This document shows, in pieces, positions 17,866-25,613 of a stretch of DNA of 36,008 nt. The notes under the pieces were generated by a model that was not told the DNA's origin, made no database searches, and worked only from the letters and a program-made list of their open reading frames with translations. The stretch lies in UHGV virus genome UHGV-0138922; one strand, 5' to 3'. The DNA comes from a virus. How positions within the stretch are numbered: the first letter of the stretch is position 1; each line of letters begins with the position of its first letter. The position numbers were made by a program, and so were the translations under genes.

Positions 17866-17890
17866 AAAAGCCACCCCGAAGGATGGCTTA
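17866..17890 (-). terminator. Strand-specific rho-independent terminator (UUCG loop)
   Basis: Minus-strand RNA AGCCAUCC-UUCG-GGGUGGCU (one G.U wobble, a C.A mismatch on plus strand) followed by a U-run. Confidence 0.7.
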
Positions 17891-17894
17891 AAAA

Positions 17895-18017
17895 TTATTT
17901 GGTCTTGCGGCCTCGTTTTGCTGTGGCTTTCGCCGTAACTTCTTCTACTTCTGGAATCACTACAGCTTCATGTTCTGGTAGCGGTTCAGGTTCTGGTAAA
18001 TGAAGTTCTTCGTTAGT
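17895..18017 (-). CDS. Putative UGA-readthrough C-terminal extension of major tail protein (40 codons: TNEELHLPEPEPLPEHEAVVIPEVEEVTAKATAKRGRKTK)
   Basis: In frame with the upstream gene after UGA, no internal stop, UAA stop 4 nt before the terminator hairpin; similar in peptide and nucleotide blocks to the capsid extension. Confidence 0.5.
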   Translation of the reverse strand, partial: TNEELHLPEPEPLPEHEAVVIPEVEEVTAKATAKRGRKTK

Positions 18018-18494
18018 TCAACCGCCAGTGGTAAACACTTCCTGTTTCAGCGGAGCACCATCAACAGCAAAGGTAAACTCTTTAGTTACCACTTCTTCAT
18101 CGCCACCGTTCATAGCAACTTTAGAAATAAAGCCGTTGTAAGCGATACGAATACCAGTCTGTTTGCCAGCGTCCACATAATATTCTACTTTGATTTGGCA
18201 GCGAGTGCCGTCTTCGGCAGCTTTTGCGAGCTTCTCGTGTACCGCATCACCTGGGATATAGTTAACGGTCAGAGTCAGATCTTCAACGTTCAGTTTACCA
18301 ACCAGCTTACGGTTATACTGAGAAGAATAGCTCTTAACTTCTACCGTCCCGCGAGACAAAGAATATTCAGGAAAACCAGCGCACTCTTTAATTTCTTCGT
18401 ATGCTTCATCAGCAAGATCGGTATTAGTGGTATCAGCGTGATAGAACAGACTTACCAGACCACCAGTAAAAATATCTTTGAATTGTTGAGACAT
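18018..18494 (-). CDS. Major tail (tube) protein
   Basis: 158 aa, immediately upstream of the G/T chaperones and tape measure gene; paralogous to the N-terminal part of 21920-22753. Confidence 0.6.
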   Translation of the reverse strand: MSQQFKDIFTGGLVSLFYHADTTNTDLADEAYEEIKECAGFPEYSLSRGTVEVKSYSSQYNRKLVGKLNVEDLTLTVNYIPGDAVHEKLAKAAEDGTRCQIKVEYYVDAGKQTGIRIAYNGFISKVAMNGGDEEVVTKEFTFAVDGAPLKQEVFTTGG

Positions 18495-18567: not shown

Positions 18568-21500
18568 TTATTCGTTTTCTACCCAGATTTCACGCGGAAC
18601 GAAGTTAGAATCTTGAATGTTCTTAAAGATTTTACCGCTAGAGTGAAGTTGGATTTTAATCCATCCACCGTTACCAGCCAGGTAATAGTTCCCGTCATTG
18701 GCAAAACGGATAAAATGGTTAAATCCTGCGGCGTCAAGAATCCACACATTACGGAAGCGGAGATCTTGTGGTAAACCTCCGGTCTGGGTATTACCAGGGA
18801 GAGTACCGGACCAGATTTTAGTACAACCTTTCGTCTTTTTGATATAACGACCGTCAAAGTTACCGTAATCAGTTGGTGTAACTCGACCAGTTACGTTTAC
18901 TGCTTTGTTTGCGGTGATTGCACCGGAAGTAAAACGCATTACTGCCACATTGTTAGCATATACATCTAAAATACCGTCGCCGTTTTGCTTAAAGCCAGTA
19001 TCACTATCACCCAAAACAATTGAGTTGCCACCTAATCCATTAGCAACGTTTACACCAAATGCGCTAATTTGCGGGGTAGTAACCTTACCAGAAACGTTCA
19101 AGTTTTGTGCGTTGATTTGTCCATTTACACTAAACTGAATCGCTGTAGTTCCTGGACCACCTGCACGCTGTGTATAGAAGTGCCAACCGCTTTCATCAGC
19201 CCACTCTAAAACCTGTTTACGATCAGCATTACCCCAAACACGACAGTTAAACGAGGATTGTGCTGTACCTTTACCCCATGTCAATTTACCACCAACTTCA
19301 AAGTCTCCTAAGAAGTTTGCTTTCAATCCACCAGTAGCCATATTACGCTCGGTGCTGAAATGACGTCCTTTGCTATCTTCCACATACAGGACGTTATCAC
19401 GACCGTTACTGCTATCACCCCAATGGTTAAAGCGAATAAAATCGCGGGATTGTCCAGCAAGTCCGGCTTCCATCGTTATATGCTGTCCAGTATTATATAA
19501 GTTACCGCCAGTATAAACATGTCCACCAAATCTAGCTGCTTTGCTTGCACCTTCTAAGGTCAATGCGGATTTATTGGAATCACCACCTAAATTAACGTTA
19601 CCGGAACTAAATTCATAAATGAATGGACGGTTTCCAGTCCAGCTACCCCATTTATCATTTTCGGCAGTAGACAGAAGATAGGTTTTAACACCATCATTTC
19701 GCCAGAATGCACCGTAATTACCGTAAATCATACGATATGCATCAGCGTTAGTTGAAATATATTGCCCGTTGGTATGGACAATTTTTGTTGCACCAACATT
19801 AAGAGAGATCTGACCGCTTTGTTCTAACGCAAAGTTGTTTTTACCAGCATCACTATAGATCTGGAATGCGTTAGTGTCGGCATTACCAAAACCAAACCAT
19901 GATTGACGAACGTTAGCACCGTTACGACGATCCCAATATTCAACAAGGTTACTATTCCCTGTCTGGCGTTCTAAACGAATATTACCACCATCAAGAACAG
20001 CACGACCAGTTTGCAGCGTGCGGTCGGTAATTTTAAGAACTTCGTTTGAGTCAGTAGTGCCAGTAGCTAGGCGGTACATGCTACCCTGAACAGTTTCATG
20101 CCAAATAGTATGACCTGATTTACTACGGAACTGACGAAGATATTTTTTACCATCACCAGTATCATTACACAAACTGATAATATCGTAAGTTCCCTGTGTA
20201 TTATCATCAAAACGAATAGTTCCGGCTTTGTTCTCTGTGTTAAACATGGTAATTACTTTACCATCAGTAACACCAGTGGACGGCTTAACGAGAGTTATTT
20301 CAGGAACGTCATGTACCGTCAGTGTAACATCGTTAGTTTTACCATATTCGACAATAACGTTATCAGTATAACGACCGTAGTTAACGTAGATATCGTAGTT
20401 ATCACCGGAAGTGTTAACCGCAAATACTTGATGAATATTTTTAGCATTTCGACGATAAGCCGCAATACTAACGCCTTTCGGGTTATTGTTACCGGAACGG
20501 ATAACAATTTCTACAAAATCAACCTGATCATAGGAGTTAACGTTATAGCCGTTACCACCGAAGATACGAAGCATTACCATTCGACCATTCTGTGGGATCG
20601 TGGCGGTTGCAATCTTGAAATAACCACGAGAAGCATCACCAGCAGGAACAGACATTTTAACGTTCTTAATGAACATCTGGTCTACTGCGGCCTTGCTATA
20701 CACACCCAATTCATCGGGAGTCGGCTTATCCCCTTCGTGATACATGCGGTAACTGAATCGCTTATTACCATCTTTATCAAAGCCATAGGTTTTAACCTGA
20801 GATGAGCTAGACCCATAATGGAACTCAAAACCGCGACCGTGAGCTTTACCGCCAGAATGAGGAATGTTCAGGATCAAGTTACCCCATCCTTCGGCATTAT
20901 TCGGACGAAACGCACCAAAATAATCAAGGTTACGTGCGCCAGCATCATCAAAGTAGTTAGCTGTTTTGGTTAACAGATACCCGTGATGATAGGTATTGGT
21001 ATTCTTCTTGATGTAAATTGCATCGTTGCTACCTTCAATACCATCAATTCGCTGGTTAGCTGCGGCAATCGCTGCATCGGTGGCAGATTTATTTTGGTCT
21101 ACCTTGTTGTTAATTGCGGTGTGGTTGCTATTAACAGTGCCAGTAAGGTTACTGATTTTAGTATCAGCGTCTTTCTTGTTATTTGCTACCGTGGTTTCAA
21201 TAGCCGATTTGTTGGACGCAACCGTGCTAGTTAAGCTAGAGATCTTGCTATCAGCATCAGACTTGTTAGCGGTAACAGTCTTAGTTAAGTTGCTAACGTT
21301 AGTGTTAGTGGTATCAACTCGGCTATTAATTGCGGTGTTATTGTCAGTAACCGTAGTGGTTAAAGCTGTGATTTTGTTGTCCGCATCTCGTTTGTTATTA
21401 GCTACGGTAGTTTCAATAGCTGATTTGTTTGCCGAAACTGTCCCCGTAAGGTTATTGATCTTGGTGTCAGCGTCGGTTTTATTTGCCGTGACTGTCTGGG

Positions 21501-21846
21501 TTAAGTTACTAACAGTGGTGTTAGTAGCATCAATGCGCTTATTGGTTGCGGTGTCTTTAGTGGTAATGGTGTTATTCAGTTCAGATTTAGCGGTAGCCAG
21601 AGCGTTAGCAGCTTCGGTTTTATTTGCCGCGATAGTAGAATCAGTAGTTTTCTTGTTATTGTCTACTTTTGTGTTTAAAGCATTATGACTTTCAGGAGAA
21701 ACACTTACTTGAACTACTGCGTTATTTTTATCTTTGGTATAAATTACATGGTCTGCCATCTGAATAGCGATTTCACCGACCTGTAATTGTTCCGGCGTTG
21801 GCTTTTTACCAGCCGTCTGTGTGCGTTTAAATTGGATTGATTGCAT
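18568..21846 (-). CDS. Tail fibre protein (1092 aa) with N-terminal Thr/Asn-rich repeat shaft
   Basis: N-terminal KPTPEQLQVGE-type motif, tandem ~66-aa repeats, Gly-rich C-terminal region; GTGAGGTG ribosome-binding site. Confidence 0.7.
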   Translation of the reverse strand: MQSIQFKRTQTAGKKPTPEQLQVGEIAIQMADHVIYTKDKNNAVVQVSVSPESHNALNTKVDNNKKTTDSTIAANKTEAANALATAKSELNNTITTKDTATNKRIDATNTTVSNLTQTVTANKTDADTKINNLTGTVSANKSAIETTVANNKRDADNKITALTTTVTDNNTAINSRVDTTNTNVSNLTKTVTANKSDADSKISSLTSTVASNKSAIETTVANNKKDADTKISNLTGTVNSNHTAINNKVDQNKSATDAAIAAANQRIDGIEGSNDAIYIKKNTNTYHHGYLLTKTANYFDDAGARNLDYFGAFRPNNAEGWGNLILNIPHSGGKAHGRGFEFHYGSSSSQVKTYGFDKDGNKRFSYRMYHEGDKPTPDELGVYSKAAVDQMFIKNVKMSVPAGDASRGYFKIATATIPQNGRMVMLRIFGGNGYNVNSYDQVDFVEIVIRSGNNNPKGVSIAAYRRNAKNIHQVFAVNTSGDNYDIYVNYGRYTDNVIVEYGKTNDVTLTVHDVPEITLVKPSTGVTDGKVITMFNTENKAGTIRFDDNTQGTYDIISLCNDTGDGKKYLRQFRSKSGHTIWHETVQGSMYRLATGTTDSNEVLKITDRTLQTGRAVLDGGNIRLERQTGNSNLVEYWDRRNGANVRQSWFGFGNADTNAFQIYSDAGKNNFALEQSGQISLNVGATKIVHTNGQYISTNADAYRMIYGNYGAFWRNDGVKTYLLSTAENDKWGSWTGNRPFIYEFSSGNVNLGGDSNKSALTLEGASKAARFGGHVYTGGNLYNTGQHITMEAGLAGQSRDFIRFNHWGDSSNGRDNVLYVEDSKGRHFSTERNMATGGLKANFLGDFEVGGKLTWGKGTAQSSFNCRVWGNADRKQVLEWADESGWHFYTQRAGGPGTTAIQFSVNGQINAQNLNVSGKVTTPQISAFGVNVANGLGGNSIVLGDSDTGFKQNGDGILDVYANNVAVMRFTSGAITANKAVNVTGRVTPTDYGNFDGRYIKKTKGCTKIWSGTLPGNTQTGGLPQDLRFRNVWILDAAGFNHFIRFANDGNYYLAGNGGWIKIQLHSSGKIFKNIQDSNFVPREIWVENE
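21140..21565 (-). repeat. Tandem coding repeats (~200 bp unit, ~2 copies, with ~22-codon sub-periodicity) inside the fibre gene
   Basis: Protein repeats VSNLTQTVTANKTDADTKINNLTGTVSANKSAIETTVANNKRDADNKITAL... / VSNLTKTVTANKSDADSKISSLTSTVASNKSAIETTVANNKKDADTKISNL... Confidence 0.7.
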
Positions 21847-21919: not shown

Positions 21920-22753
21920 TCAGTATTCCCCGAAGTCGATTCTATCAGTCTTAGCAACCGCATTAATTTCGGCTGGCGTTGGCTTCTCATTTGTTGTATA
22001 GACTTTAATCCATTCCGATTTTCCGTTGTCCTGAATATTTCGTACCCGCAAACGTGGAGCACCGGAAGTATTACACGTTAATTGCCATGCGCCATGCTCA
22101 TTAGCTTGAAGATGAATTAACGATGTATCAGCACCATAAGGGTTAGTGCTAGCCGTTCCTTTGTAGGTTACGAAGCGGTTTCCTGTCAGAGATTCACTAT
22201 CAATAGGTCCGGTGAAAGGATTTACACCAGCGCCCAGACCAAAATCACCCTGACGCAAGATCCGGCCTTCGGTTGCAATACCCCTTGCAAGAATCCCGCC
22301 ATCTGGTTCTAGTTTGAATTCCATAGTTACAGCTTTGTTATCACCGCCACGAGTTTTATGGCTAGTGACATAAGCATCATAAATGACATAGTAACCAGTG
22401 TTAGCAGCACTATAGCCAGAGTTCACAACATAGAACATTCTAAAGCGCAAAGGTGTTTTATCCTCTACGGCTTTCATCAACATTGCTTGATGTTCGTCGT
22501 CAAGAACACGGTTTACTGTGAGCGTAGTCGGTTCAAGTTTGCGATAGCCAGCCAGCTTACCAGTCGCATCATGATCATACTCTTCGTAAGTCTCGATCTC
22601 GGTTGATTCTGTCAGCGTAGGAAAGGCTGCGATGTTCTCCATACCACTAAAGCTAGGATCGAAAAAGTCGACCTGATTGTCTAGCTGGTTAGAGATCGAC
22701 ACTTCAACATGCGACCCCGTAAAAATATCTAAGTTATCATGTGTAATATTCAT
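21920..22753 (-). CDS. Tail tube-like protein with extra C-terminal domain (277 aa), paralog of the major tail protein
   Basis: Shares DIFTG, LTLTVN and VDG/EPDG blocks with 18018-18494; C-terminal ~120 aa additional. Confidence 0.55.
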   Translation of the reverse strand: MNITHDNLDIFTGSHVEVSISNQLDNQVDFFDPSFSGMENIAAFPTLTESTEIETYEEYDHDATGKLAGYRKLEPTTLTVNRVLDDEHQAMLMKAVEDKTPLRFRMFYVVNSGYSAANTGYYVIYDAYVTSHKTRGGDNKAVTMEFKLEPDGGILARGIATEGRILRQGDFGLGAGVNPFTGPIDSESLTGNRFVTYKGTASTNPYGADTSLIHLQANEHGAWQLTCNTSGAPRLRVRNIQDNGKSEWIKVYTTNEKPTPAEINAVAKTDRIDFGEY

Positions 22754-22762
22754 TATTACCCC

Positions 22763-23185
22763 TTAAAAACGCGCTAGATAAGAAAATTTAAGACTAAGTG
22801 TCCCAACGATACCCCCATCACTAGAATCATCGTCATAATCGGTATTAGAAGCGACTGGAGTTATATCTGAAATGGAGAAGCCCAAATCTTTAAAACGTGG
22901 GTTATCTGGCTGAATCTGGATTATCTGGCAAATACCCTCATGAATTTTCGTTTCATGAATCTGAGAATATAATTGCATTTCGATAACGCATTCAGCTTGC
23001 ATTGCATTACCACCACGGACCCTAGTGTAAGTCTCATTCATTCCGGTAATCCAACACACCACGTCATCGCTAAAACCAGTTTGAGTTTGTTCTACGTTTA
23101 AAGCCAGACCTAGATCTTGTTCGATAATATCCTGTAAAGCACGTTTAATCTTAAGACGTGGCATATTATTAACGGTAGCGAGCAT
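22763..23185 (-). CDS. Head-tail joining / neck protein (putative)
   Basis: Position between capsid and tail genes; AGGGGGTG ribosome-binding site supports the internal ATG near 23185. Confidence 0.4.
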   Translation of the reverse strand: MLATVNNMPRLKIKRALQDIIEQDLGLALNVEQTQTGFSDDVVCWITGMNETYTRVRGGNAMQAECVIEMQLYSQIHETKIHEGICQIIQIQPDNPRFKDLGFSISDITPVASNTDYDDDSSDGGIVGTLSLKFSYLARF

Positions 23186-23459
23186 GAGCACCCCCTGCTA
23201 AAGTGATAAAGCAATCAGTGGTATTATCACCATTGCGCTTAATGTATTGAACTTTGAAACGCTGACTTTCTACAATGACAATATCACCTTGCTTTAAATC
23301 TCCCTCACGACAGAATAAGAATTCTGTTTCTGTCATTACCCCTTGTTCGTCGGTAGTAGTAATTTCATGGTAAGCACGAATTGATTTACCACCTTCCACC
23401 ACAAAAACAGGAGCACTCTTAAACATTCGATTTAATTGTGATTCTGATAATTTGAACAT
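23169..23459 (-). CDS. Head-tail adaptor / head completion protein (putative)
   Basis: First gene after the capsid terminator; GGGGGTG ribosome-binding site before the ATG. Confidence 0.4.
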   Translation of the reverse strand: MFKLSESQLNRMFKSAPVFVVEGGKSIRAYHEITTTDEQGVMTETEFLFCREGDLKQGDIVIVESQRFKVQYIKRNGDNTTDCFITLAGGAHARYR

Positions 23460-23495
23460 AGTCACCCCCTTTTATGGAGTATTTACATACAAAAA

Positions 23496-23517
23496 AGCCC
23501 CACCGTTAGGCAGGGCT
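23496..23517 (-). terminator. Strand-specific rho-independent terminator
   Basis: Minus-strand RNA AGCCCUGCC-UAAC-GGUGGGGCU with two G.U wobbles, followed by a U-run. Confidence 0.65.
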
Positions 23518-23522
23518 AATTA

Positions 23523-23609
23523 TTATTTTGCTTTCGGCGGGCGACCCGCCTTTTTAGCTGTGGCTTTCACCGTAACTACCGGAATTTCTTCCGGCAATTC
23601 TTCGTTATT
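23523..23609 (-). CDS. Putative UGA-readthrough C-terminal extension of the capsid polyprotein (28 codons: NNEELPEEIPVVTVKATAKKAGRPPKAK)
   Basis: In frame after UGA, UAA stop immediately before the terminator; parallels the major tail extension. Confidence 0.5.
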   Translation of the reverse strand, partial: NNEELPEEIPVVTVKATAKKAGRPPKAK

Positions 23610-25613
23610 TCATTCAGCGCCAATCTGAAGAACTTTCAGAGCTTCCGGCTGAGTAACAACATAATCCAGATCTACCCAGATACGCGGAACGATAGCAGAC
23701 TGTGCACGGTAGGTAGTGTCGTCCATATCCAATTCCAGACCGCCCCACTCACCGATAGTGATGCCGGAGAAGTCACCCAGAACGATGTGATCTGCCGGAA
23801 TAACACCAGAAGTAACTACTTCGTAACCAGCCAGTTTGCCGTTTTCGATGATATAACCGGAAACGCCGTTATCTTTCAGGGTAGATTCCAGTTCGGCAGC
23901 AGTTGCACCGCTCATCGCAAACTTGATCGCCTGAGCAGGAACGCCAGCGTCGGTCAGTTTAGCAATTTCTTTCAGGAAATCTTTGTAAGAGAAAGCAGCT
24001 TTCTTCTCAACGCGGCTAGCGTCTACCAGTTGCTTAACCAGACCAGCCGGACCACGAGCATTTTCTTTGTCAGACAGAATCAGTTGTTCCAGTTTGATAC
24101 GAACAGCTTTGTTAATGTGGTCAGTGATCAGGGTAGCGATACCCGGAACGGTTTTCAGAGACTGACGGCTAATCGGGTTGCCACCAGCGAAAGTCTTAGG
24201 AGACAGTTTCACGTTCGCAAATTCAGCTTTGCTTTCCGGCGCAGCACCGTTTTCATCAACGAAGCCGAAAGCATCAACGCTGGATTTAGTCATTTTTGGA
24301 ATAGCAGTCGGAGAAGTCAAGCCACTATAAACAGTCACACCCAGACGACCCAGAACAGATTCCGGCATCAGCATTTCGATGTAGGATTCAGTCATCAGTT
24401 TTTCGTCGGTGATAGCAGTCAGATCGGCTTTGGTGTTACCAGCAGCAGCAGCACGCATAGCAGCAGCCGGAACGAATACAGAGCCACCACGAGCAGCACG
24501 ACCACGCTGCATAGTTGCAGTAGCAGCCATTGCAGAAAACTCGGCTTCGTTAGCACCCAGAGCTTCACCATCTACCAGAGAGCGAATTACGTTGTTCAGG
24601 TCAAAAGTTTTTTCCATTTTAGAGTCCTTAATTTGTTCGTTATTACGTTGAGCATTGGTAATGTTATTTAGTGCCTTAGTGCGGAATGCTTCCGGCGTCA
24701 TATCTTTAACTGCCAATGCGCGTTTTAATTCTTCGTCGTCAATATTTAGTTCGCGTGCAATTTCGCGAATTTCTAATTCGTCTTCTTCGGAACGTTCAGC
24801 CACTTCAATTTTTTCTTCTTCAACCGGAGCAGCTTCACGTTCTTCTGTCATTTCTTCTTCTTCCCGAACAGTTCCACGATCATCATCAGAACTTTCAGAA
24901 TGTTCAGCGTCTTTTCCGTCTTCGAGATTTTCATTTTCTTCATTCTCTTCAACTTGGCGCTCTTGAGTTTCTTCTACTTCCGGTTCTTTATTTTCTTCTA
25001 CCGGAGTTTCTTCAACCTGAGCGACTTCTTTTTCTTCGTCTTTAACTTGTTCGATTTGTTCTTTAGTCATATCGCGTTTAGCCTCCAAATTAACTGTGAT
25101 AGTATTTAGAGAGCGATTTAGACCGACAGAATCGTCTGCGGGCACAGACACCCATGAAATCTCATGAGGAATCCACTTAGTAACAATCAATTGTCCTTTA
25201 GCGTAATCGATGTGATATTCTTTAATGTCATAACCGACAGAAATTTTTTCCATCGTACCTTCAATGACTTTATTACGAATATCATTAGCCAAAGTACCAT
25301 GCTTAGAGAATTTAACAGTAGCACGGCCTACTTTATCCGCATCGATTCGAGCGTTACAGACAACACCAATGTGATTATCGAAATTATGATTGAACAGCAA
25401 CGGAGCGTTATTATTCAGGCGAGACAGATCAACCGCTTCCGGTGTATGTAACAGAATTTCATCTAATACCACCATCTCTTGATTTTGCTCATCCCAGAAT
25501 TGGCGCTGGTAAGGCTGTTCACTGGAGAAAGCAATTTCAAATTCGTATTGATCGTTATGCCCTTCGTTAATAACTCCACCGTAACCGTTAAGATCGCGGC
25601 GAAATTTAAGCAT
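23610..25613 (-). CDS. Prohead protease - acidic scaffold-like linker - HK97-fold major capsid protein (single 667-aa ORF)
   Basis: N-terminus resembles HK97-type prohead protease (LLFNHNFDNHIG, ISVGYD, HEISWVSVPAD); ~150-aa Glu-rich linker; C-terminal ~330 aa HK97-like capsid domain; AAGGTGA ribosome-binding site. Confidence 0.8.
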   Translation of the reverse strand: MLKFRRDLNGYGGVINEGHNDQYEFEIAFSSEQPYQRQFWDEQNQEMVVLDEILLHTPEAVDLSRLNNNAPLLFNHNFDNHIGVVCNARIDADKVGRATVKFSKHGTLANDIRNKVIEGTMEKISVGYDIKEYHIDYAKGQLIVTKWIPHEISWVSVPADDSVGLNRSLNTITVNLEAKRDMTKEQIEQVKDEEKEVAQVEETPVEENKEPEVEETQERQVEENEENENLEDGKDAEHSESSDDDRGTVREEEEMTEEREAAPVEEEKIEVAERSEEDELEIREIARELNIDDEELKRALAVKDMTPEAFRTKALNNITNAQRNNEQIKDSKMEKTFDLNNVIRSLVDGEALGANEAEFSAMAATATMQRGRAARGGSVFVPAAAMRAAAAGNTKADLTAITDEKLMTESYIEMLMPESVLGRLGVTVYSGLTSPTAIPKMTKSSVDAFGFVDENGAAPESKAEFANVKLSPKTFAGGNPISRQSLKTVPGIATLITDHINKAVRIKLEQLILSDKENARGPAGLVKQLVDASRVEKKAAFSYKDFLKEIAKLTDAGVPAQAIKFAMSGATAAELESTLKDNGVSGYIIENGKLAGYEVVTSGVIPADHIVLGDFSGITIGEWGGLELDMDDTTYRAQSAIVPRIWVDLDYVVTQPEALKVLQIGAE

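Follow-up and report, generated by a model that had tools for sequence, protein, structure and literature searches.

Here we examine the 3' ends of two structural genes in the virus genome UHGV-0138922, a stretch of 36,008 nucleotides (nt), referred to below as the window, that represents a prophage of ~36 kb with its late genes on the minus strand. The two genes encode the major capsid protein and the tail tube protein, and each ends in the same kind of cassette: a UGA-A stop, a 10-nt spacer, an RNA helix, an extension of 28-45 codons in the reading frame of the gene (frame 0), a second stop of the form UAA UAA or UAA-U, and an intrinsic terminator (Table 1). We consider it probable that the cassette serves programmed UGA readthrough of both genes, in which tRNA-Trp would decode the stop and long subunits would be made in sub-stoichiometric amounts.

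Table 1. Features of the capsid and tail-tube 3' regions, with their positions in the window
Feature	Position	Strand	Remarks
Major capsid gene, 667 aa	23613..25613	-	S78 prohead protease, scaffold and HK97-fold capsid protein in a single open reading frame
Capsid gene, candidate leaky stop signal UGA-A	23609..23612	-	TGA itself at 23612-23610
Capsid extension NNEELPEEIPVVTVKATAKKAGRPPKAK, 28 sense codons, frame 0	23526..23609	-	acidic Pro/Glu linker, VT(A/V)KATAK block, basic tip
Capsid RNA hairpin AAUUGCCGGAA-GAAA-UUCCGGUAGUU	23574..23599	-	starts 10 nt past the UGA, stops directly ahead of ACGG(U/C)GAAAGCC; fold z-score -3.9
Nucleotide-invariant block ACGGUGAAAGCC, 3-bp GNRA mini-hairpin	23562..23573	-	within the 20-nt block common to the tail-tube extension
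GC hairpin GGCGGG-UCG-CCCGCC	23536..23550	-	inside the A/V-G-R-P-P codons
Tandem strong stop UAA UAA closing the capsid extension	23520..23525	-	
Capsid intrinsic terminator, 9-bp stem and U-run	23490..23517	-	stem 23517-23496; starts 5 nt after the first UAA
Tail tube (major tail) protein gene, 158 aa	18021..18494	-	phrog_158 1.2e-20
Tail-tube gene, candidate leaky stop signal UGA-A	18017..18020	-	TGA itself at 18020-18018
Tail-tube extension TNEELHLPEPEPLPEHEAVVIPEVEEVTAKATAKRGRKTK, 40 codons, frame 0	17898..18017	-	
Tail-tube long-range RNA helix	17937..18007	-	5' arm AACUUCAUUUA (18007-17997) pairs with 3' arm UAGAAGAAGUU (17947-17937); register as in the capsid hairpin
Shared 20-nt block GTTACGGCGAAAGCCACAGC, coding for VTAKATA	17920..17939	-	
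UAA(U) stop closing the tail-tube extension	17895..17897	-	
Tail-tube intrinsic terminator	17862..17889	-	stem 17889-17868; starts 5 nt after the UAA

The identity of the capsid gene is clear from its matches to the Pfam models PF05065 (8e-27, 94.7 bits) and PF04586 (1e-9, 39 bits), both of which exceed their cut-offs, to NCBIfam TIGR01554 (69.9 bits) and to phrog_617 (1e-92); the nearest solved structure chain is 8GTA. By homology and synteny, the second gene is assigned to the tail tube proteins of lambda-type siphoviruses. Its product matches the Pfam and NCBIfam tube models slightly under their cut-offs, and the phrog_158 profile that recognizes it runs ~220 positions beyond its C-terminus. 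The gene lies upstream of G/T chaperone genes (TAC, Phage_tail_T) and of a gene for a tape-measure protein of 810 aa, and an orthologue was named 'phage tail tube protein' by PGAP.

An earlier note on this DNA had claimed that the capsid gene ends in a UGA followed by 28 in-frame codons and a UAA about 5 nt ahead of a terminator, that a second gene has the same layout, and that the two 3' ends share two blocks of nucleotides. The coordinates and sequences of the capsid region are as described, and the second gene is that of the tail tube, with a homologous 40-codon extension and a TAA 5 nt before its terminator. Each of the two shared blocks occurs exactly twice in the window, against 0.01 occurrences expected. 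In shuffles of the same composition, an open frame arises by chance in 24%, 13% and 10% of cases for the three sequence types (0.24 for the capsid and 0.13 for the tail tube of the window). Taken alone, each open frame is unremarkable, and the case rests on the paralogy of the two extensions and on their conservation in relatives, both of which hold. The choice of stop codon is itself unusual for this genome: 31 of the 37 window open reading frames (ORFs) stop with TAA, mostly TAA-T, and only three stop with TGA-A. Two of these three encode the two most abundant virion proteins, and their extensions end in TAATAA or TAAT.

Scanning IMG/VR with the capsid yielded 32 close relatives (87-99% amino acid identity) and ~47 distant ones (33-42%). 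TGA-A followed by an open frame 0 is present in 36 of 36 related capsid loci, which comprise the 32 close relatives, one RefSeq Escherichia coli genome and three diverged loci. The close relatives represent 27 distinct nucleotide versions, and frame 0 is open to TAA(TAA) in all of them. In the RefSeq E. coli genome the same arrangement is found in both genes, each of which the PGAP annotation stops at the TGA. Tail-tube genes fall into two types: type A (82-97% identity) has TGA-A and an extension of 36-41 codons in 16/16 loci, while type B (56-58% identity) has TAA-T directly at the terminator in 13/13. The distant homologues of both the capsid and the tail-tube gene, including those of Escherichia phage DCP80, all end in TAA and carry no extension, the stop of the tail-tube homologues (TAA-T or TAA) again being placed at the terminator. 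Every relative that has the cassette therefore keeps both UGA-A and the open frame. The host is E. coli, in which chromosomal prophages matching the region were found in 56 of 5426 complete genomes; one lysogen is E. coli 14EC029 (NZ_CP024141), with the prophage near 2.60 Mb. No cultured phage with the cassette was detected among 50,697 phage records searched by megablast and blastn with the capsid end and both cassettes; only the tail-tube terminator of the window was matched, to RB49-like phages. A conserved 19-mer compared with GTDB genomes gave two chance matches, in Bacteroidota, and a search with the downstream 98-aa gene returned the same contigs again, without new upstream contexts.

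The extension has the signatures of coding sequence. When the nucleotide sequences were aligned without constraint, seven of seven gap blocks proved to be multiples of three (48, 3, 6 and 3 nt in the capsids; 6, 15 and 3 nt in the tail tubes), for which the probability by chance is ~(1/3)^7 = 5e-4. At least 97 substitution events have occurred without creating any stop in frame 0 (P ~0.013), and frames +1 and +2 contain 2-5 stops each. Codon usage was scored as log-odds trained on the phage's own structural genes; frame 0 reaches 0.26-0.47 bits per codon in five versions, compared with 0.38 +/- 0.18 for real genes and -0.6 to -1.5 for the other frames. The three sequence types also share a peptide plan, namely [T/N]N[E/V]E, an acidic stretch rich in Pro and Glu, IP, V[T/K]AKATAK[K/R] and a basic end. 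The claim that paralogous in-frame extensions behind UGA on two structural genes are no coincidence is thus borne out by an invariant UGA-A and open frame, by indels that stay in frame and by gene-like codon usage.

The proposed resemblance of the basic end to AT-hooks or histone tails fared less well. For the capsid tail, the AT-hook model PF02178 scores 13.3 bits against a gathering cut-off of 17.4, and the variants RGRKTK, RGRKPKE and QRKTKE give no match. Apart from this sub-threshold AT_hook, no Pfam domain was found at E-values up to 10 in the 28-45-aa low-complexity extension, and immunoglobulin (Ig)-like decoration (Ig, BIG2, FN3) was rejected as a candidate on the same grounds. The tips carry 5-7 Lys/Arg residues, and it is their basic charge alone that is conserved across the variants.

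The cassette has, in addition, been transferred as a unit between diverged genes. In the loci L081, L099 and L117, the capsid is merely 37% identical to that of the window, yet the long extension is present, and near-identity at the nucleotide level starts exactly at the TGA. The TGA, the extension, the terminator and the downstream gene were therefore recombined onto a different capsid gene. The capsid extensions are themselves mosaics of linkers of 28 aa (NNEELPEEIPVV...) or 42-45 aa (T[N/P/S]VEPSEPSPDLGEENLIP...) with tips of two main types, KK[A/V]GRPPKAK and KK[Q/E]RKTK(E/AK).

This history is difficult to reconcile with the extension being a remnant, that is, a once-fused C-terminal tail severed through mutation of TGG to TGA or a similar change, which would persist through close kinship and for which readthrough would be functionless background. 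A junction placed exactly at the TGA, and linker and tip types that were reshuffled with every indel in frame, are not what such a relic would leave. Moreover, the same stop and frame have been kept in two genes and four upstream gene lineages over a synonymous divergence of ~0.28, and ~50 loci include neither a revertant to a sense codon nor a drift to UAA. The idea does draw on the narrowness of the prophage family, which is restricted to E. coli, on fairly high ratios of nonsynonymous to synonymous change (pN/pS, given below) and on short acidic-then-basic tails that three distant capsids bear natively; we regard it as quite improbable. These three 41%-identical capsids (L035, ~9070-9105; L036, ~9070-9114; L073, ~9000-9039) end in GTPAEAKAAKQ, GTPAEAPAEAKAGK and GEAEAGETRKAK with no intervening stop, and their sister sequences terminate ~10-14 residues before this; tails of a similar kind thus occur in constitutive form as well. 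In two other capsid loci (L034, 4972-5020; L038, 9075-9110; 41%-identical capsids), a hexanucleotide repeat, (AAAAGC)n, directly follows the TAA, with lengths that differ by 12 nt. The repeat is rich in Lys in all three frames (EKQKQKRKRK, KSKSKS and KAKAKAKAKA) and may be another route to a basic tail, or merely a repeat.

A feature absent from the earlier note is the RNA helix that lies 10 nt past both UGAs. The helix starts at this distance in every version, and its 3' arm ends at GUU directly before the invariant ACGGCGAAAGCC mini-hairpin, so that it encloses the entire segment coding for the acidic linker. The arms themselves differ between versions (AAUUGCCGGAA/UUCCGGUAGUU, AACCUUCUG/CAGACGGUU, AACCUUCUGAA/UUCAAGAGGUU, AACUUCCUUUA/UAGAAGAAGUU and AACAACC/GGUUGUU). 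With the register fixed, 85% of cells are paired across 25 distinct sequences, as opposed to 22-47% when the partner is slid by 1-3 nt, and compensatory double changes are found in 6 of 11 pairs. The covariation score is 0.284, compared with 0.123 +/- 0.015 in shuffles (0 of 500 as high), for a helix that was derived from the same sequences as were scored and that has only about five independent versions. Unaided minimum-free-energy folding finds the helix in three of four further variants. RNAalifold, given 11 long-type sequences, returned a strong consensus fold with zero compensatory pairs because the stems never vary in this type; the covariation emerged only when different sequence types were compared in a fixed register. 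As a whole, the capsid 3' regions are much more stably folded than shuffled sequence (z -4.3 and -4.9); folding of the tail-tube regions is weak (z -0.7 to -2.7).

Two further elements point to RNA-level selection or to recombination within the extension. In the AGRPP hairpin of relatives, GCG...CCG and GUG...CCA covary, which means that an Ala/Val change is accompanied by a synonymous Pro change; this suggests selection on the RNA inside the extension. The block GTTACGG(C/T)GAAAGCCACAG, whose capsid copy occupies 23557-23576 and whose tail-tube copy is the 20-nt block of Table 1 (17920-17939), is free of synonymous variation: across ~34 distinct versions of both genes there are only three variants, all of them non-synonymous. 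Linker and tip types, which are shuffled independently, meet at this block, so that it may be an RNA element or a junction for recombination. The helix may stimulate readthrough, protect a mostly untranslated stretch of mRNA, or do both.

Several observations weigh against readthrough as the explanation of these regions, or against its being frequent. Constraint at the level of codons, to which the earlier note had pointed as a check, is visible in that pN/pS stays below 1, but weakly so: it is 0.63-0.73 for the long capsid type, 0.14 for the short type (with few changes) and 0.40 for the tail tube, against a value of 0.25 in the capsid body. In the long capsid type, frame 0 and frame +1 are not told apart by a frame-shifted control. 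Synonymous sites do not vary in several stretches, among them the CCCCCGAUUUGGGGG hairpin and GTTACGGCGAAAGCCACAG, which implies selection on RNA or DNA that could alone account for some of the conservation. When 5.8 billion proteins were searched with a profile of 15 extension peptides, none carried the extension natively fused; the sole match was a mis-called ORF of 33 aa (P0001 in nr, a 'hypothetical protein' from a Caudoviricetes metagenome-assembled genome), whose sequence MGEENLIPPQEEESQTVKAKATAKKVGRPPKAK is the distal part of the long capsid extension, called from an internal TTG. The helix starts ~17 nt downstream of the first P-site nucleotide, slightly beyond classical recoding stimulators. 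Finally, the release factor 2 (RF2) of wild E. coli is more active than the K-12 allele, and readthrough could therefore fall well below 1%.

Part of this evidence is what a structured 3' untranslated region (UTR) would leave behind. Here, a stack of hairpins between the true stop and the terminator would lend stability to the transcripts of the two virion proteins made in the largest amounts, or would keep Rho or RNase out, while the open frame would be incidental and any readthrough noise. The strong capsid folds, the stems that do not vary even at synonymous positions, the helix kept in register by compensatory changes, the covarying AGRPP hairpin and the lack of a fused form in any database protein all speak for it. 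So does the depressed pS of the extension (0.13 vs 0.29 in the capsid body) at similar pN (0.08 vs 0.07), from which it follows that the region is constrained overall, partly at the nucleotide level; the low pS also goes some way to explaining the weak pN/pS signal. A structured UTR is the main rival to readthrough, and it accounts for the nucleotide invariance. However, it gives no reason for a frame 0 that is open everywhere and in which all indel blocks are multiples of three, for gene-like codon usage confined to that frame, or for a peptide character that is kept across divergent nucleotide sequences. Nor does it explain the pattern of stops, with UGA-A fixed over the UAA-U used elsewhere and an in-frame UAA UAA 5 nt before the terminator, and the tail-tube extension is barely structured yet equally conserved. 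We therefore judge it unlikely as a full account and retain programmed readthrough as the preferred interpretation.

How the UGA would be decoded has to be considered separately. Dedicated decoding could take the form of selenocysteine insertion, guided by a hairpin like the selenocysteine insertion sequence (SECIS), or of a phage opal suppressor tRNA, and the downstream peptide might alternatively be made from a separate small ORF with its own start. The helix begins ~10 nt 3' of the UGA, which is roughly the spacing of the upper stem in the E. coli fdhF SECIS, but there is no Rfam match down to E=10, and the apical structure is entirely different among the three sequence types; selenocysteine was rejected for these reasons. 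ARAGORN identified no suppressor tRNA in the window. With respect to a separate ORF, the database entry P0001 does call one of 33 aa within the long-type extension, but the extensions contain no in-frame ATG, and their TTG and GTG candidates lack a Shine-Dalgarno sequence and lie inside stems. All of these routes appear highly improbable. Two other candidates were also discarded: a frameshift origin like that in Listeria phages, given that the extension follows the TGA directly in frame 0 and that the +1 and +2 frames hold stops, and stop-hopping, since matching take-off and landing codons are absent from the tail-tube gene. The only ARAGORN call in the window, a 91-nt tRNA-Glu(UUC) at 22908-22998 (+), lies antisense inside the ORF at 22763-23191 and is probably a false positive.

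Because there is no suppressor tRNA, no SECIS-like Rfam match and no plausible independent start, we propose near-cognate decoding by Trp-tRNA(Trp). In E. coli, this tRNA competes with RF2 at UGA, with readthrough that generally lies between 1e-3 and 1e-2, reached 2-4% in a reporter and responds to cAMP, temperature and acid stress (PMC10570021). At both genes of the prophage, most ribosomes would be terminated by RF2 at the UGA to give the normal capsid and tail-tube proteins. A small share, ~0.1 to a few percent, would accept Trp-tRNA(Trp) and carry on to the UAA beside the terminator, and the downstream helix could possibly modulate this decoding of UGA-A. The junctions expected in the long forms would be LQIGAE-W-NNEELPEEIPVVTVK for the capsid and FTTGG-W-TNEELHLPEPEPLPEHEAVVIPEVEEVTAK for the tail tube.

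The long subunits would then co-assemble with the normal ones. With ~415 capsid and ~175 tube subunits, as inferred from T=7 and the 810-aa tape measure, a readthrough level of 0.1-3% would amount to ~0.4-12 tagged subunits per head and 0.2-5 per tail; the ~3% of the earlier note, like the incorporation into virions, is an assumption. An outward-facing C-terminus is known for HK97-fold proteins from T7 10B display, P22 and encapsulins, and also for lambda-type tube proteins, where the Ig-like domain of gpV is attached to it. Therefore, the tails would be expected to project outward. Additions at these ends also appear to be tolerated, given the reach of the phrog_158 profile past the tube protein and the native tails of the 41%-identical capsids. 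Head and tail of each virion would bear a small number of flexible appendages, in which an acidic, extended Pro/Glu-rich spacer, reminiscent of the (Glu-Pro)n rod of TonB, would hold a tip rich in Lys and Arg. By analogy, the role of the tip is most plausibly weak electrostatic adhesion to anionic polymers of the cell surface or mucosa. The arrangement also hints at a natural way to display peptides in low copy number on a coliphage, on its head as well as its tail.

A more far-reaching interpretation, which we offer only tentatively, is that the cassette is a portable recoding module, in which the helix would raise bacterial readthrough and which recombination could paste behind any virion gene, so as to display a few charged tentacles per particle. 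If this is true, no earlier case of programmed stop-codon readthrough would be known from a tailed double-stranded DNA (dsDNA) phage, nor any earlier natural RNA structure that stimulates readthrough in bacteria. The level of display could then follow host physiology, since in E. coli the extent to which UGA is read through depends on cAMP, pH and growth state.

Other observations concern the surroundings of the tail-tube gene. The window encodes a second tail-tube-like paralogue of 277 aa (21920-22753, -), of which the N-terminal 150 aa match phrog_158 (major tail protein) and are followed by ~120 extra C-terminal residues. Its neighbours are the head-completion genes on one side and, on the other, a gp34-like long-tail-fibre gene (18568-21846), which is consequently flanked on both sides by tube-like genes. 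The tail-tube terminator of the window (17862-17889, -) is 92% identical to the terminators of RB49-like T-even phages in 54 records, whereas that of the relatives is instead nearly identical to the capsid terminator. Genetic exchange with T-even phages is suggested by the RB49-like terminator together with the fibre genes, which resemble gp34 and gp38. The record of Escherichia phage DCP80 (PQ671644.1; L001 in our set), which is classified in the Straboviridae and has a length of 141 kb, opens with 22 kb (1-22000) of lambda-like siphovirus head and tail genes that share 43% identity with the module of the window; this record may be a chimeric assembly.

At the level of sequence, both hallmarks of programmed readthrough, a weak conserved stop and conserved coding in frame 0, are found at the capsid and tail-tube genes. 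The literature searched, whose coverage is incomplete and hence no proof of novelty, yielded no account of readthrough at the capsid or tail genes of a dsDNA phage. If the interpretation is correct, programmed readthrough, which in phages is known only from Qβ-like RNA phages, would extend to tailed dsDNA phages and to two structural genes at once. It would also follow that standard annotation misses isoforms of virion proteins, as PGAP stops both genes at the TGA.

The system closest in mechanism is the A1 protein of Qβ, for which the UGA of the coat gene is read as Trp at ~1/15 and which has a polyproline linker (PMC8067240). The host, E. coli, is the same, as would be the leaky UGA read as Trp; the few extended coat subunits of Qβ enter the capsid, and their extension likewise opens with an extended Pro-rich linker. 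However, Qβ is a 4.2-kb single-stranded RNA levivirus with a folded extension of ~195 aa on one gene, whereas the phage studied here is a 36-kb tailed dsDNA prophage with low-complexity tails of 28-45 aa on two genes. Closest in biology are the Listeria phages PSA, A118 and A500, in which recoding at the 3' end of the gene lengthens both the capsid (Cps) and the major tail protein (Tsh) by +1 or -1 frameshifting, with an RNA structure or a stop codon as the stimulator (PMC5009743). Those phages use slippery or proline codons, and their extensions were not reported as a shared cassette, in contrast to the paralogous extensions found in frame behind UGA here.

With regard to the RNA, the readthrough signals of alphaviruses and coltiviruses and the pseudoknot of murine leukaemia virus likewise combine UGA or UAG with a spacer of ~8-10 nt and a conserved extended RNA structure (cited in PMC5009743). 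Those stimulators act on eukaryotic ribosomes and eRF1. We know of no bacterial counterpart to the 3' readthrough stem-loops of eukaryotic viruses, and the cassette is a compact candidate for a bacterial cis-acting readthrough signal.

Finally, T7 (10A/10B), T3, Lactobacillus phage A2, SPP1 (gp17.1*) and lambda (gpV) also expose a minor or accessory C-terminal segment at the surface of their HK97-fold capsid or siphovirus tail tube. These additions differ from the present ones in that they arise by frameshift or constitutive fusion and are mostly folded Ig or FN3 domains; that of T7 10B, made by frameshift, is short and not Ig-like (PMC5009743). The adhesion suggested above for the basic tips would parallel the role proposed for Ig-like domains added by frameshifting. 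If it is correct, tails that act through charge would join the Ig-like domains as accessory adhesion devices of the virion.

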